This document shows positions 2,030-39,306 of a stretch of DNA of 39,664 nucleotides, piece by piece. Position numbers and translations under genes: made by a program. The DNA is from a virus (lineage: Duplodnaviria; Caudoviricetes). The notes below the pieces were generated by a model. That model made no database searches and was not told where the DNA came from. It saw nothing but the letters and a program-made list of their open reading frames with translations. The stretch covers positions 1 through 39,664 of the IMG/VR virus record IMGVR_UViG_3300020593_000005. One strand, 5' to 3'. Every line of letters begins with the position of its first letter. Position 1 is the stretch's first letter.

Positions 2030-2125
2030 TATCGGGTTTCTCCCATCGCGCGTTTCAGAACCAGTTTCCGCGCGGTGATCCCGATCAGAAGGCTCGGTGT
2101 TGGTAGCACCGGGCCTTCGTCATTT
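2030..2125 (+). ncRNA. Putative small structured RNA, antisense to the mini-HTH leader
   Basis: TTGACG-N17-CATTTT promoter (1996-2024); bulged stem-loop 2031-2085; terminator-like hairpin 2088-2118. Confidence 0.45.
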
Positions 2126-2327
2126 CGGGAATGTCAGAGCGCAGGATTCCCGCGAAATCGAATCTTTGCAAGGGGGTATATGACAGGTTGAAGACTCGGG
2201 TTGTCCCCGTCCTGACTCTGTTTGTCGCACGTTGCAGTCGGCTTATCGGCGCAACTAACGGGCTTCTCTTGGGTGCAGAAATAAAAAGAGGGATCATAGG
2301 CGAGCAAAAATAAATATGGCTTGTCAC

Positions 2328-2394: not shown

Positions 2395-3192
2395 TTAATG
2401 CGTAGGCGCAGGCAATAGGCGCGGAAGATAGGTCAACGCCGCTGGGTCGCGCTCCGCGAAATAAGCCGCCGCCCTCTGAGGAAGCCACACCTCTCGGAAG
2501 TGGCGGCGGAAATGATGGAGAAGGTTCTCCGGGTAGGCCTTCGCTTGGACAGGCTGACGCTGATCCTCAAATGTGTGCCAATATGTCGGCATTGCTTTGG
2601 TGTCGACACCATGCTCATCCCGCAGGAACTTTGCGAACATTAGCCCGGACGAAATGTCAGGCCAGAGCTTTTCAGGGATCCGGTAGCCCAACGCTTCCAT
2701 AGGCGCGATTAGGCATAGCGTAAGCTCTGTCAGGATCGAGAAATGGCCGGCGGGGACGTTCCCCTGATTTGCGATATAGCGCCGCAGATGGAAAGGCAGC
2801 TCAGCGGGACGATGCGGGGCGCCGTTGCCCGACATCCAATCGAACACCCATTGCGACACCTGAACCGCGAACGTCGGTGAAAGCCATTGAGCTAGGTTGA
2901 TTGCGATCTGGGGATGAACCCATGTCCCCTGCAATTCTGGATTTCCGCCAACAAGTGATTGAATTAGTTCCGCTATCGGTATTCCGAGGGCGGAAGAAAG
3001 TTCTGCCGCAAAGGCCTTGGCAGTCTGACCTTCCCAATATCGGCTCCATGGCCGACCAGCAGCCTTGCACATCGCTGTAGCATTGATGTAGCCATCCGCC
3101 GCGCGCTGCTGGATTAATGATCCTTGGTAGGTATGGGGGACAAGCGCGAGTTGATATTGGCCGGCGCTATGCTGGGTGGGCGACAAGCTCAT
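2395..3192 (-). CDS. KilA-N domain protein with BstA-like C-terminal domain (candidate abortive-infection factor)
   Basis: KilA-N motifs DGYINATAMCKAAG and GTWVHPQIAINLAQWLSP; C-terminal VPAGHFS, PDISSG, AYPE..FRRHF motifs resemble the BstA family. Confidence 0.8.
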   Translation of the reverse strand: MSLSPTQHSAGQYQLALVPHTYQGSLIQQRAADGYINATAMCKAAGRPWSRYWEGQTAKAFAAELSSALGIPIAELIQSLVGGNPELQGTWVHPQIAINLAQWLSPTFAVQVSQWVFDWMSGNGAPHRPAELPFHLRRYIANQGNVPAGHFSILTELTLCLIAPMEALGYRIPEKLWPDISSGLMFAKFLRDEHGVDTKAMPTYWHTFEDQRQPVQAKAYPENLLHHFRRHFREVWLPQRAAAYFAERDPAALTYLPRLLPAPTH

Positions 3193-3261
3193 ATAAAGAA
3201 AACTCCAAGTAGGTCAGCTTGGAGGCCTTGACGATAGAGCTACAAAAGCACATACGCGTGG

Positions 3262-3345
3262 ATACAGACATCGACCGGGCCTCCTAAGCATCGGTTGCGA
3301 AACGCCAGCGGAGAACCTTCCAAAGTTCCGCTGGCGTTCTTGTTA
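3262..3345 (+). ncRNA. Putative antisense RNA to the KilA-N/BstA-like leader
   Basis: TTGACG-N17-CATACG (3228-3256); 12-bp terminator stem 3301-3338 followed by a T-rich tail. Confidence 0.5.
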
Positions 3346-14264: not shown

Positions 14265-14387
14265 ATGACGTTCTGGGACTTCTGCACATTCTGTGTGACG
14301 CTTTGGCTCGCGCGTAAATGGGTGCCCAATATTCTGAAATGGATCATGGAAGAGCGCCAGGGCACCACAAGGGACGGAGGTAGGTGA
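14265..14387 (+). CDS. Small hydrophobic protein (40 aa)
   Basis: G-rich RBS; stop overlaps the start of the NusG-like gene. Confidence 0.4.
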   Translation: MTFWDFCTFCVTLWLARKWVPNILKWIMEERQGTTRDGGR

Positions 14388-15058
14388 TGGGCGTAATTAT
14401 CGCGGTTGAGGCTGGCTGCGATGCGCCGGGACGCCTGCGAACGGATCGACGACATCAGTACGGATTTGGGGAGCATGTTGCGGTGACGGACACGAATGAT
14501 CGCTGGTGCATCCTTCGCATGTCGGGCATCTCGACGATCCCGGTCGCAACGGCACTGACGGACGCGGGTTTTACCGTCTGGACGCCAACGGTCACTGAGG
14601 AATGTCGGGTCGGGAAGGCGCGCGAACGCCGCGAGCGCAGCGTATCGCTCACGCCTGGCATCGTGTTCGCAAAGGACGACAGGCTACACGACCTGGCGGT
14701 GATGGCCCGTTCACCGGCACTGACGTTTCAGCGCTGGAACCCGGAGACGAAGCGCATGGAGCGGAAGGGCTGTCCGTCCTTTGCAGTATTCCGGTATCAG
14801 GGGCAGTTCCCCCGCATCAATGACCGCCATCTTGATCCGCTGCGGCAGGCTGAGCAGCGCGCCCAGCCGCGCGACCGTGGCCCGCACTTCAATGCGGGTG
14901 ATGAAGTCCGCATACCGTCTGCCGCGTTCGGCGGACTGTCGTGCGTTGTGGATGAGGTTCAGAGCAGGTTCGCTGTCGTCCGCCTTAATGGAGCCATGGG
15001 CGAGATGCGGATCAGGGTGGAGATGTGCGATCTTCTCCCAGCGAAAACGGCGGCTTGA
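14384..15058 (+). CDS. NusG/RfaH-like antiterminator (probable late-gene regulator)
   Basis: NGN-like WCILR..LTDAGFTVWTP..PGIVF plus KOW FNAGDEVRIPSAAFGG; occupies the lambda Q position. Confidence 0.8.
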   Translation: MMGVIIAVEAGCDAPGRLRTDRRHQYGFGEHVAVTDTNDRWCILRMSGISTIPVATALTDAGFTVWTPTVTEECRVGKARERRERSVSLTPGIVFAKDDRLHDLAVMARSPALTFQRWNPETKRMERKGCPSFAVFRYQGQFPRINDRHLDPLRQAEQRAQPRDRGPHFNAGDEVRIPSAAFGGLSCVVDEVQSRFAVVRLNGAMGEMRIRVEMCDLLPAKTAA

Positions 15059-15754: not shown

Positions 15755-16048
15755 ATGCCTTGGCCCACCACATCACGACATGAGCGCGGATACGGCCGCG
15801 AGTGGGAGAAGCTGAGAACAGCAGCCCTCCAACGTGACAAGCATCTGTGCCAGCCCTGTCTTCGTAGGCACCGCGTCACGCCCGCAGCTCAGGTCGACCA
15901 CATCAATCCCAAGGCTAAGGGCGGCACGGACGACATGGATAATCTTCAGTCGATATGTGGCCCCTGCCATGATGCCAAGACGCTGACCGATGAAGGGAAG
16001 CGGGCGAAGGTGCGCATCTCTGCCGATGGTTGGCCGGAGCAGCAATAA
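15755..16048 (+). CDS. Packaging-associated HNH endonuclease (HK97 gp74-like)
   Basis: CQPC...VDHINPK..GG...NLQSICGPCH...KT...DGWP. Confidence 0.88.
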   Translation: MPWPTTSRHERGYGREWEKLRTAALQRDKHLCQPCLRRHRVTPAAQVDHINPKAKGGTDDMDNLQSICGPCHDAKTLTDEGKRAKVRISADGWPEQQ

Positions 16049-16118
16049 AACAATTCGGCCCGACAAGGTGGTGGAACACCGAGCCGGGCCTAACCGCAAC
16101 GAACGGATGAGGTTCGAT

Positions 16119-16685
16119 ATGGCTGACATCGATTACGCCAGCGAGGTCTGGCTGACAATTCCATTTGCCCCCGACTATGTTGTGTCGAACTTCGGCAGAG
16201 TTAAGCGCACGGCTCTTGAACCGGCTCACCGATGTGGGCGTCTGCTTAAGCCGAAGATCAGGCGCGACGGCTATCCAGAGGTCACGCTGTATGTGAACGG
16301 CGAGCCGTTATTCTTTCGGGTTCATCAATTGGTGTGCCGCACGTTCCACGGTGAAAGGCCGAAGGGTAAGGATGAGATTGGCCATATCGATGGTGACCGG
16401 TCCAATCCCCGCGCCGACAATCTCCGGTGGGTGACCAAGGAAGAGAATTACGCTGACCGGAATGGCCACGGCACGCACAATAAGGGCATCAATAATGGCG
16501 CTGCCAAGCTCGACCCGCTCAAGGTGCAGGCTGTTCACATCTTAAGCGAGCGACTGCCGAGCAGGAAGGTCGCCTCAGTCTTGGGAATAAGCAAGTCGCA
16601 GGTGGGTAACATCCTGCGGGGTGAAGCTTGGGCAGGCGATCCTCGCCGCCGACAAAGGCGAGCGGAGGCGAAGCGCGCCGCCTGA
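16119..16685 (+). CDS. NUMOD4-HNH homing endonuclease with C-terminal HTH
   Basis: EVW..IP...YVVSNFGRVK; VHQLVCRTF; HIDGDRSNPRADNLRW. Confidence 0.85.
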   Translation: MADIDYASEVWLTIPFAPDYVVSNFGRVKRTALEPAHRCGRLLKPKIRRDGYPEVTLYVNGEPLFFRVHQLVCRTFHGERPKGKDEIGHIDGDRSNPRADNLRWVTKEENYADRNGHGTHNKGINNGAAKLDPLKVQAVHILSERLPSRKVASVLGISKSQVGNILRGEAWAGDPRRRQRRAEAKRAA

Positions 16686-16770
16686 CCAGGGGGGGGTAGT
16701 CGGAAGTCTGGCCCCTCCCGCCGTAGGACCGATGGGGCCCCAAACTTCGCACGTTTGCAGATTGATTTCC
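16686..16770. other. Probable cos region
   Basis: G-run-containing intergenic segment between the HNH genes and terS, the usual cos location in HK97-like phages; the exact cosN was not identified. Confidence 0.4.
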
Positions 16771-26360: not shown

Positions 26361-26621
26361 TCATTTGTTGATATTCGACCAATTTTTATAGGCGGCGCTG
26401 GACACGCCGCTTGAGTTCTTCGGCTGAGACTCGTTTTGCGGCTTCTCGAAAAAGCGGTCGCGAAACATCACGCCATGGATGCAGTAAGGTGCTGCCACCA
26501 AAAACACTGCGATTGCCGCCGCTGCTGCTTGTTGGGCGGCTCCTGGCGCGCCCAAAGAGGCGACTATAAGCAGCAGGCCGATTGCTGCTCCTATAAGCGT
26601 TAATATCTTGAAAACCTTCAT
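26361..26621 (-). CDS. Small two-TM membrane protein (moron)
   Basis: GGGAGGG RBS; two hydrophobic helices. Confidence 0.7.
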   Translation of the reverse strand: MKVFKILTLIGAAIGLLLIVASLGAPGAAQQAAAAAIAVFLVAAPYCIHGVMFRDRFFEKPQNESQPKNSSGVSSAAYKNWSNINK

Positions 26622-26698
26622 CTGACCCTCCCATTCTGGAGGGATGTAATCTCAATAGCGGAATGGAAGCAACATACTTGAAACTGGCCGGATGCATT

Positions 26699-26989
26699 TC
26701 ATGATGCCTTCTCCAGCAACCGCTCCACCGCAGCCGGGTCAGTCTTAATCATCGAGAGCAAGACGCGCGCCGGGGCGTCAGGGTTGCGTCGCCCCTGCTC
26801 CCAATCGCGCACCGTGCCGATGGGTAAATGGTAGGTCGATGCGAACGCCTGCTGGGTTTTCTTTGTAGCCGCGCGGATCGCCTTCACGTCCACCGGCTCA
26901 TGAATAACATAGCCTTCACGCGCCCCAGATTTATAGGCGTCAACCTCAGCAAGGCCACGCTTCAGGCTCTCAAAGTCCTCGTTCGTCAC
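26699..26989 (-). CDS. HigA-like XRE antitoxin
   Basis: DVKAIR..TQQAFA...GTVRDWEQGRRNP. Confidence 0.88.
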   Translation of the reverse strand: MTNEDFESLKRGLAEVDAYKSGAREGYVIHEPVDVKAIRAATKKTQQAFASTYHLPIGTVRDWEQGRRNPDAPARVLLSMIKTDPAAVERLLEKAS

Positions 26990-27300
26990 TTGCCTTTTCC
27001 TTTCTTCAAATCACTCTTTTGTGCGGCGGTCAGGTTGGCTTGCTTACCCTTCGAAATGACAGTCAGGACGAAAACCGGCTCATCTTCCATAGTGTAGAAG
27101 GTGATGACCCGATAACCGCCAGACTTGCCTTTGCCTTCCTTCGCGATGCGGACCTTGCGGCATCCACCTGTGCCGGGGATGATATCTCCCGCATCAGGAT
27201 TGTTCGCAAGGAACTCAACGGCGGCCTCGCGCTCCCCGTCTGTCATGCCAGCCTTCTTGGCGGCGCTAAGATATTCGGGCGTTTCGACTACCGTATGCAT
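26986..27300 (-). CDS. RelE/HigB-family toxin
   Basis: NPDAGDIIPGTGGCRKVR...GKSGGYRVITFY; toxin-first order. Confidence 0.9.
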   Translation of the reverse strand: MHTVVETPEYLSAAKKAGMTDGEREAAVEFLANNPDAGDIIPGTGGCRKVRIAKEGKGKSGGYRVITFYTMEDEPVFVLTVISKGKQANLTAAQKSDLKKGKGK

Positions 27301-27306
27301 AAAGAG

Positions 27307-27360
27307 CATATACGGCATTGCCGTATCATAAGCAAGCGTGAAAGCGCGGCATTGCCGTAT
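27307..27360 (-). promoter_or_regulatory. Toxin-antitoxin promoter with palindromic operators
   Basis: ATACGGCA-T-TGCCGTAT (27310-27326) and a second partial copy (27347-27360); minus-strand TTGCTT-N17-TATATG. Confidence 0.7.
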
Positions 27361-38038: not shown

Positions 38039-38547
38039 ACGCCCTCCCCTTCCCCCTGTCCACCCTGCGCGCCCACTGGAAGCTCATAGGAGCCGCTTTC
38101 CTGCTATTGGCCCTCATCATCCAGACATTCCGCCTGAGCGCCACAGAGGGCGCCCTGAGCGCGGAGAAGGCGGGAAGGCGGGCTGACCGCGCTTCTTATG
38201 AGAAGGCGCAGGCGCAGGCCACCGCAGAAGCCTTATCCGCCAAGCTGAAAAAGGATGCCGAAAATGCTCAAGCTGCACAAACTGCCGACGCTGGCTATAA
38301 TGCTTTGCGCGAGCGGTATGATCGCCTCTTGCGGGTCAAAGCCGCTGATCGTTCATCCGGCAGAACCATTGCCCCCGCCGAAGGTTACGCTCCCAGCGTT
38401 CATGAAAGCGCCCCCGCCATGCTTGACGGTTTTCGCCCCTTGCCAGAATCCGACTGGCTGAAACTGCCCGCCCTGCAATCTTACGCTGACCAATGCTTTA
38501 ACTGGTCGATGTCTCTCGCTAACGAGGAAGGCCATGGCGATCAGTAA
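38035..38547 (+). CDS. Inner-membrane spanin (Rz-like)
   Basis: N-terminal TM plus alanine-rich coiled coil; contains an embedded lipoprotein ORF. Confidence 0.75.
   Translation: MNALPFPLSTLRAHWKLIGAAFLLLALIIQTFRLSATEGALSAEKAGRRADRASYEKAQAQATAEALSAKLKKDAENAQAAQTADAGYNALRERYDRLLRVKAADRSSGRTIAPAEGYAPSVHESAPAMLDGFRPLPESDWLKLPALQSYADQCFNWSMSLANEEGHGDQ
38255..38461 (+). CDS. Outer-membrane spanin (Rz1-like), embedded in Rz
   Basis: +1 frame; lipobox IAS-C; proline-rich mature region. Confidence 0.72.
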   Translation: MPKMLKLHKLPTLAIMLCASGMIASCGSKPLIVHPAEPLPPPKVTLPAFMKAPPPCLTVFAPCQNPTG

Positions 38548-39073
38548 AACCCAATCGGGCCTGCGCTTTACGTCGAGCAATGACAGCCTCCTCGATTGTA
38601 GAGAAGGTGCCGAGGTAATGCTTTTTAACGCCGAGGCTAATTTCCGCCCTGTATTTCCCGCGCACGGCGACCACGCCGACGTGTCCCGTGGAGTTGGCGC
38701 GCGAAAGACTGCGATTTTTGGAATTGTCACTCCCAGTCACAACTCTAAGATTCCGGAGCCTGTTGTCGGAACGAATACCGTTGATGTGGTCAATCTCCCC
38801 ATCGGGCTCCGTCCCATGGACCATCTTCCACATCAGTCGGTGCACGTAGTAGAACCTACCGTCCAGAGTGAGGCGGATGTATCCGCTTGGGGTGATGCGC
38901 CCGGCCTCCTTCCCTGCTCGGTCGTTGTTCCAGCGCAAAGTCATATAAGCATCGGATCGAGAGCCGGAAGCGGGGCACAGATCACGGCGCTTCCATAGCA
39001 GGGAGCCGGTGTCTTGATTGTAATGCAGCACCTTGCGTAGATAATCCGCGTCGGGCAGTTTCAGTTTAGCCAT
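38519..39073 (-). CDS. HNH-AP2 homing endonuclease
   Basis: VHRLMW, IDHINGIRSDNRLRNLR, NSTGHVGV, YLGTFSTIEEA; AAGGA RBS. Confidence 0.88.
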   Translation of the reverse strand: MAKLKLPDADYLRKVLHYNQDTGSLLWKRRDLCPASGSRSDAYMTLRWNNDRAGKEAGRITPSGYIRLTLDGRFYYVHRLMWKMVHGTEPDGEIDHINGIRSDNRLRNLRVVTGSDNSKNRSLSRANSTGHVGVVAVRGKYRAEISLGVKKHYLGTFSTIEEAVIARRKAQARLGFTDRHGLPR

Positions 39074-39162
39074 AGTGCAGTATCCTTGCATTTTGGTCAG
39101 GGCTGGGTCGCTGTTAGCGCAGCTTCCCGGCCCGCATTTCTTAGCAGAATCAGGTTTTGTTC

Positions 39163-39306
39163 TCAAGCAGCGACGGACCCGGTGGAGGTGCCGTCTTTCC
39201 TGTCGGGTCAATCCTGATCCCGGAGAGCGATACTTTCATATGCGCGACGAACACGGCCCGGTTGCAGGCGGTGAGGGAATGGGCTGTGTCGCTCGACCAA
39301 CCCTAA
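39163..39306 (+). pseudogene. Orphan 3' end of an alternative Rz spanin gene
   Basis: Startless frame ...IPESDTFICATNTARLQAVREWAVSLDQP* aligns with the Rz end LPESDWLKLPALQSYADQCFNWSMSL (PESD-x16-W-xx-SL). Confidence 0.55.

Follow-up and report, generated by a model that had tools for sequence, protein, structure and literature searches.

A portable cassette of the SymR/RepX kind, probably encoding an antisense RNA, precedes two homing endonuclease genes in a phage genome

Two hairpins upstream of the two free-standing homing endonuclease genes of a phage genome are, with good probability, each part of a portable cassette of about 80 nt of the SymR/RepX kind, which is likely to give rise to a translation-repressing antisense RNA with two hairpins. 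For the family to which the two copies belong, sequence comparison established the architecture, the covariation of the stems, the selection of the antisense strand, an antisense -10 box at a fixed position in most relatives, and full-length matches that include the 5′-ends of SymR and RepX. A sense promoter would start the mRNA a few bases ahead of the first hairpin, and a counter-promoter in codons 4–7 would start an RNA opposite codon 2. This antisense RNA of 75–80 nt would end at a GC-rich hairpin followed by the U-rich complement of the sense -10 box. Its pairing with the nuclease mRNA would begin loop to loop and would yield a full duplex, in which the Shine-Dalgarno (SD) motif and the AUG would be hidden, so that the expression of a DNA-cutting or otherwise toxic gene would be kept low.

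Two cassette copies and their nuclease genes

The window, i.e., the whole stretch of DNA that was analyzed, is a complete record of 39.7 kb (39,664 nt, IMGVR_UViG_3300020593_000005), and 36 ORFs were scanned. The genes include repressor-like, primase/helicase, RusA, terminase, capsid, portal, tape-measure, and lysozyme genes, and the window reads as a temperate phage. The terminase region is 65–70% like that of phages of Rhizobium, Paracoccus, and others, and this resemblance points to an alphaproteobacterial host group. A RelE-family toxin gene with small neighbours is located on the opposite strand amid the tail genes (26386–27318, minus strand), and a region directly ahead of the late genes (14384–15058) has a weak match to UpxY/NusG-type antiterminators.

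The first nuclease gene (16119–16685, plus strand) was identified with Pfam as a free-standing NUMOD4-HNH_3 endonuclease gene; empty alleles indicate that it was inserted together with its cassette before the G-run that precedes terS. The second (38519–39073, minus strand) encodes a free-standing HNH_3 endonuclease according to Pfam and PHROG and is convergent with the lysis genes. The domains that a first-pass annotation had assigned to the two proteins were thus recovered with one exception, i.e., the AP2 domain of the second protein, for which there was no Pfam call at E ≤ 1e-3. AP2 is present in several other HNH_3 proteins encoded downstream of the cassette. The two nucleases can be aligned over 70 aa of the HNH core only, with 40% identity, and both genes begin with ATGGCT. 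A resident small HNH gene (15755–16048, plus strand, Pfam HNH), which we take to be gp74-like by its position, lies upstream of the terminase genes, and its TAA stop codon forms the first half of the putative sense -10 box of copy 1.

The annotation had described a hairpin motif with an 8/2/4/6/4/2/8 geometry and a 3′ TRACC at 16057–16095 (plus strand) and 39133–39095 (minus strand), ending 23 and 21 nt before the respective ATGs. All of this was confirmed in the sequence, with the ATGs at 16119 and 39073. The 39-nt motif represents the 5′ half of each cassette of about 80 nt. Longer folds of both sites revealed a second hairpin that extends into the start codon, and the complete order is sense -10, hairpin, CTRACC, second hairpin over the SD motif, and ATGGCT. 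Both hairpins are real, and chance does not explain them. When the two strands of the window were scanned with a descriptor, three loose matches were obtained, and a 6-nt loop together with at least seven of eight outer pairs was limited to copies 1 and 2. In 100 genomes simulated with the dinucleotide content of the window, such matches numbered 0.02 per genome, none with TRACC. The 34-nt hairpins folded with z-scores of -4.1 (copy 1) and -3.6 (copy 2).

In copy 1, the putative sense -10-like hexamer TAAAAC (16046–16051, plus strand) occupies the position of a TAnAAT block of the relatives, and its complement would give the predicted antisense RNA a U-rich tail. On the minus strand, this RNA would consist of a 5′ stem-loop with a GUUA linker (16091–16124), which was predicted by folding and is complementary to the SD region and the first two codons, and of a 3′ stem-loop (16057–16090), which is the hairpin described initially and has eight of eight outer pairs on the minus strand versus seven of eight on the plus strand. 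In copy 2, the predicted RNA has the same parts on the plus strand, i.e., a 5′ stem-loop with a GUCA linker (39068–39099), again predicted by folding and complementary to the SD region and the first two codons, and a 3′ stem-loop (39100–39133), the second of the hairpins described initially, which was supported by folding, the match to the covariance model introduced below, and RNAalifold. A putative sense promoter of copy 2 (TTGAGA, 17 nt, TAAGAA; 39138–39166, minus strand) was read by eye and was not called in the promoter scan; similar hexamers at a distance of 17 nt are present in two relatives (L003 and L042). The covariance model matched copy 1 from 16124 to 16046 with 49 bits (E 7.5e-12) and copy 2 from 39068 to 39144 with 51.5 bits (E 1.6e-12). 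Pairing between the two cassettes (-56 and -58 kcal/mol) was far weaker than self-pairing (-170 and -168 kcal/mol), and therefore, cross-regulation is unlikely.

A third, degenerate copy (2063–2129, plus strand; 18.6 bits, E 0.0015) has an intact 3′ stem-loop and a poor 5′ stem-loop. On its sense strand (minus), it heads a five-codon ORF, which is followed by a 55-aa DNA-binding-like ORF (1801–1968). In addition, the leader (3193–3285, minus strand) of a KilA-N gene (2395–3192) contains a long hairpin closed by GC, downstream of which are CTGACC and GGAG; an AnnnTA is present 13 bases past codon 2 of the gene. This leader is possibly a divergent relative of the cassette; the covariance model gives it no score.

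Family architecture, selected strand and counter-promoter

The layout of the window cassettes is repeated upstream of relatives of the second nuclease, and further members were collected from IMG/VR with two patterns. With pattern 1, in which only the loop and CTRACCA were fixed, 120 of an estimated 370 stretches were fetched, and 80 of 104 distinct matches had a hairpin with a six-base loop. With pattern 2, in which the flanks were fixed and the loop, the second hairpin, and the gene were free, 121 of about 250 estimated stretches were fetched; 111 of 112 distinct matches passed the hairpin-and-start filter, 94 start with ATGGCT, and the loop of copy 1 recurs four times. After removal of repeats, 103 phage members remained. 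As the patterns were derived from the first examples, this sample leans to one subtype, and the counts ignore kinship; U-rich tails were demanded by the second pattern and were thus left out as evidence. The same kind of pattern yielded 82 matches in GTDB genomes, and 56 loci fitted the model in full length at E ≤ 1e-3. The carriers include cultured Rhizobium, Brevundimonas, Variovorax, Pseudomonas, Xenorhabdus, Pantoea, and Streptomyces; matches in MAGs may be misbinned phage contigs. Some loci contain paired cassettes, which either precede successive genes in tandem or stand back to back (L096, 86–158 and 872–944; L359, 872–952 and 968–1047). A BLAST search with one cassette against annotated phages retrieved three records, none of them with an RNA annotation.

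The covariance model R1 was built from 99 phage sequences. The window, E. coli, P22, and plasmids contributed none of these, so that SymR, RepX, and sar were left out; the E-values of the model are rough. In 188 kb of lysis-region phage DNA (36 of 80 fetched loci), it found no match at E ≤ 0.01. In the model-fitted alignment, both sides change in 11 of 17 pairs, and 93% of the cells pair, compared with 30–47% in slid controls. RNAalifold with 17 hand-picked sequences indicated covariation of 13 of 17 pairs. On the sense strand, 63 members have an apical loop of the form ..AAC and 16 one of the form GTT..; 4 combine the two forms, and 20 show neither. This flip fits loop-to-loop pairing, with a UU-led loop on either partner, and UU-led loops are associated with the idea of a U-turn in loop-loop pairing.

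To determine the selected strand, each stem of the 103 members was aligned in a strand-neutral way, and isolated mismatches were counted in sense letters. Hairpin 1 had 91 A·C versus 7 G·T mismatches (18 of other types), and hairpin 2 had 98 versus 3 (66 of other types), while the base composition predicts ratios of about 1.6:1 and 2.2:1, respectively. The bacterial-genome members (52 best matches, 51 distinct) gave 44 versus 7 and 51 versus 2. An A·C on the sense strand is a G·U on the antisense strand, and the A·C excess in this comparison thus shows that the cassette fold was selected on the antisense strand. In 94 of the 103 members, the z-score was lower for the antisense than for the sense fold, and an invariant G·U pair, possible on the antisense strand only, was found in all 17 hand-picked sequences, including SymR, RepX, and both window copies. 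In each outer stem of the window hairpins, one A·C mismatch of the sense strand corresponds to an antisense G·U pair, and such an A·C is present in each of the two hairpins of both copies.

The second characteristic of the family is the counter-promoter. In 69 of the 103 members, AnnnTA, which corresponds to a TAnnnT -10 box on the opposite strand, is present at offsets of 5–8 past codon 2; among 241 other ORFs from these loci, only 10 have it. Offsets 6, 7, and 8 hold 14, 51, and 4 members. The box falls in codons 4–7, and all three frames are used. Synonymous recoding (500 trials) gave a mean of 20 and a maximum of 36, and codons 5–7 of the members encode 64 different tripeptides, so that AnnnTA is not forced by the protein sequence. 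It was found in 41 of 51 members of the bacterial-genome set and in 43 of the 64 hairpin-positive sequences of the first set that had a recognizable start, while the 27 hairpin-negative sequences of that set included two with a recognizable start and one with the box. Two observations count against the antisense reading: AnnnTA is absent from 34 of the 103 members, and a -35 consensus behind the box was sought among the members and was not seen. symE and repA carry the antisense -10 box at the modal offset of 7, and two silent changes in the symE box abolish SymR and raise the level of SymE protein more than sevenfold (PMC1891008).

In the window copies, the counter-promoter deviates from that of the family. 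The candidate antisense -10 box of copy 1 (TAATCG; 16130–16135, minus strand) is weak, lacks the last T, is located 1–2 nt closer than usual, and was not called in the promoter scan; its TA is at offset 9, which was found in one of 103 relatives. In copy 2, TA is missing from the family position, where the Leu codon that supplies it in L002 and L042 reads CTG. A displaced candidate antisense promoter (TTGTAA, 16 nt, GATAAT; 39018–39045, plus strand) has 9 of 12 consensus matches, with 0.1 expected in shuffles, and is located about 16 nt farther inside the coding sequence than the promoter of SymR. Because one counter-promoter looks weak and the other displaced, repression is less certain for the window genes than for the family. 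An antisense -10 box that is weak or missing at the family position in both copies would also suit an explanation that we regard as unlikely, namely that the family is interpreted correctly, but that the window copies no longer make their own antisense RNA and act as a promoter plus structured leader. The gene of copy 2 faces the lysis genes, and read-through from these convergent genes may silence it instead. However, both copies retain G·U pairs that exist only on the antisense strand and score 49–51.5 bits, and copy 2 has the displaced promoter-like site. Moreover, about a fifth of the members of set 1 also keep the TA without the last T (57 of 64 have TA with or without it, versus 43 with AnnnTA), as is expected for alphaproteobacterial promoters.

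The strand test bears on a further explanation, i.e., a sense leader of the kind found in T4 homing endonuclease genes, in which the ribosome site is masked by an mRNA hairpin and becomes accessible once this hairpin is opened by a different promoter or a factor. The sense strands of the window copies fold as well (-28.5 and -26.9 kcal/mol), with the start codon region paired, and hairpins that sequester the ribosome binding site are known for I-TevI, segB, and mobE (PMC2988022, accessible part). We nevertheless consider such a leader improbable. The mismatches favour the antisense fold by 13:1 and 33:1, the SD-like bases of both copies sit in a loop and are 70–79% unpaired, and the antisense -10 box would be left unexplained. 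It is still less probable that the main hairpin is a mere intrinsic terminator or insulator of opposite-strand transcription that is carried along with the gene. The antisense strand has a GC-rich stem followed by a U-rich run, and the terminator of P22 sar has been annotated on a similar hairpin, but the strand bias of the second hairpin, the conserved pairing between CTRACC and ATGGCT, and the fixed -10 box would not be explained, and neither of the window hairpins was called in the terminator scan.

Cargo genes and insertion of the cassette

The genes downstream of the cassette were characterized in a gene-blind set, in which 61 of 65 eligible ORFs were scanned. Endonucleases accounted for 52 of the 61 (HNH, GIY-YIG, and Endo VII; two of them weak), six belonged to phrog_1743, one was excisionase-like, and two had no assignment. 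The first-pass annotation had proposed to examine enrichment before endonuclease genes with a covariance model and a table of downstream genes, and the enrichment turned out to be strong. Its suggestion that a cis-regulatory element restrains the nucleases is most likely correct, with the modification that the working fold is on the opposite strand. All five tested proteins of the phrog_1743/6196 type with a match of their own are Icd-like host division inhibitors. In bacterial genomes, Pfam classified the 48 cargo genes as 21 endonucleases, two TnpB, one integrase, three DUF2637, and one DUF4329, and 20 had no match. The cassette heads TnpB (IS605 OrfB) genes, which encode RNA-guided nucleases, in two GTDB MAGs (L326 and L336), genes for DUF2637 proteins in Streptomyces (L335, L351, and L393), and genes for excisionase-like proteins (phrog_733) in two viral contigs (L245 and L098).

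The cassette is optional, as 15 of 53 loci of HNH relatives have one (three of these are in the training set). At site 1, comparison of alleles shows that cassette and gene insert as one unit. In a locus that is 95.7% identical over the terminase region (L407), the stop codon of a divergent small HNH gene abuts the G-run, without cassette or nuclease. A low-depth contig of an RNA run (one run, share 0.07, contigs) joins 16011 to 16689 and likewise skips the cassette and the nuclease. None of 46 terS relatives has the NUMOD4-HNH nuclease of the window, and relatives of this protein were found at one locus only. The gap between the small HNH gene and terS comprises 101–320 bases in 27 of the 33 relatives that have this gene, versus about 757 in the window. 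Two loci (L429 and L446) carry a cassette with different HNH genes at the same site before terS. The sense -10 box starts with the TAA of the resident HNH gene in the window (16046–16048) and in L429 (about 885–890), i.e., in two independent insertions. For the empty site of copy 2, no close relative was found among 80 lysozyme loci.

Joint insertion of cassette and gene could also be accommodated by a mobile-element end, and the loop geometry common to the two window copies by a protein-binding RNA or single-stranded DNA site set by the AA/GA internal loop. RepX binds FinO (PMC8136791, accessible part), so a chaperone may act on the antisense RNA. Such an explanation nevertheless has very little probability, as AA/GA occurs in none of 103 relatives, the apical loop varies and is found in both polarities, and the sense strands, folded as DNA, gave weak z-scores (-1.1 and -1.6). 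The AA/GA loop, which had been described as conserved, is thus common to the two window copies only and was rejected as a binding motif, and no finding calls for the phage or host factor that had been suggested to bind the element.

Comparison with known RNAs

Rfam scans of the window and of both sites, at the gathering score and at E ≤ 10, gave no relevant family for copies 1 and 2 and no match to ribozyme or c4-type RNA families, in accordance with the initial view that the motif belongs to no named family. This view holds at curated thresholds, but the relatives match symR and Plasmid_R1162 in full length below threshold, and the family model recovers both RNAs. The Rfam family symR (RF01809, threshold 61 bits) gave full-length matches of 27–44.5 bits to the antisense strand in 13 of 19 phage loci, and 20 further loci gave four matches to symR and two to Plasmid_R1162 (RF00043). 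Over all relatives, the symR scores were 27–46.9 bits, and the Plasmid_R1162 scores were 39.9–43.2 bits, below the threshold of 55 bits. In the reverse direction, model R1 scored SymR with 32.3 bits, from its annotated first base, and RepX of pRSF1010 with 33.1 bits in full length. A model search of the E. coli K-12 and P22 genomes found no match and is uninformative, since it missed even symR, to which an unfiltered search gives 32 bits. Rfam assigns symR and Plasmid_R1162 to no clan.

On balance, we favour the view that a single old family of plug-in antisense cassettes comprises SymR, RepX, and hundreds of phage and prophage leaders that have not been catalogued. Such a cassette would supply a promoter, a ribosome site, the first codons, and a counter-promoter of its own to dangerous genes that are unrelated to each other, i.e., those for HNH, GIY-YIG, and Endo VII nucleases, for TnpB, for Icd-like inhibitors, and for an integrase. 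It may be a general means of tolerating free-standing homing endonucleases in temperate phages. To our knowledge, control of free-standing homing endonucleases is known mainly for T4-type lytic phages, and the cassette offers a concrete and easily tested restraint mechanism for temperate phages. It would also link two Rfam families without a clan, turn SymR from a one-off toxin-antitoxin RNA into one use of a portable module, and ascribe the common 'MA...' starts of unrelated phage nucleases to the cassette instead of protein function. The mechanism itself is already known, as cis-antisense occlusion of the ribosome site is textbook knowledge. Neither such a cassette on phage nuclease genes nor the link between SymR and RepX was found in a literature search that covered mainly freely available articles without their supplements, in which motif catalogues could contain them.

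The leaders of T4-type homing endonuclease genes share with the cassette the translational restraint of such genes. In I-TevI, segB, and mobE, sense-strand hairpins sequester the ribosome binding site and are freed by late promoters, and the accessible part of PMC2988022 describes no antisense RNA or shared sequence family. In contrast, the SD-like bases of the window copies are largely unpaired, and the fold was selected on the other strand. P22 sar is closer, with a length of about 70 nt, a promoter annotated in the ant coding sequence, and a similar GC-rich 3′ hairpin with a six-base loop closed by G-C. However, it has neither CTRACC nor ATGGCT, and the annotated RNA ends short of the AUG. 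Model R1 matched the sar hairpin alone (15.5 bits, E 0.01), the window copies have neither full-length likeness to sar nor an ant target, no sar match was obtained in Rfam scans of the window or the relatives, and sar and SymR are listed separately in the accessible part of PMC5415839. Sar works alike; the sequence likeness is limited to the hairpin and does not establish kinship.

RepX is a very stable, FinO-bound RNA of 75 nt with two stem-loops and a GUUA linker that covers the ribosome binding site and start codon of repA (PMC8136791, accessible part). It thus resembles the cassette RNA in length, stem-loops, and linker, and its target shares the ATGGCT start and the -10 box at offset 7. 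It differs in controlling plasmid replication genes and in binding FinO, and in the phage members it is the mRNA strand that fits the RF00043 model. The window has no match to this family, which is defined by 55 bits and a position over IncQ repA. Contrary to the RepX account, a review table lists no antisense system for IncQ (PMC12361487, accessible part). A 47-bit copy of the cassette is located on the MOBQ plasmid pZM1P1 (L480, 838–916), between a replication initiator gene and a small ORF.

SymR is a 77-nt cis-antisense RNA that starts opposite codon 2 of symE, with a promoter in the first codons at the shared offset. Like the predicted cassette RNA, it has two stem-loops and a six-base loop closed by G-C and covers the SD motif and AUG of a harmful gene. 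In contrast, its target is an AbrB-fold toxin under LexA control and not an endonuclease. The window copies are below any symR match, and thus below 61 bits, precede HNH endonuclease genes instead of symE, and have no canonical -10 box at the place of that of SymR. SymR and RepX are both proven cis-antisense repressors of translation. Both window copies have the architecture of these two RNAs, i.e., two predicted antisense stem-loops over the SD motif and start codon with a 5′-end opposite codon 2, and they match in full length, with 49 and 51.5 bits, a model that also recovers SymR and RepX.
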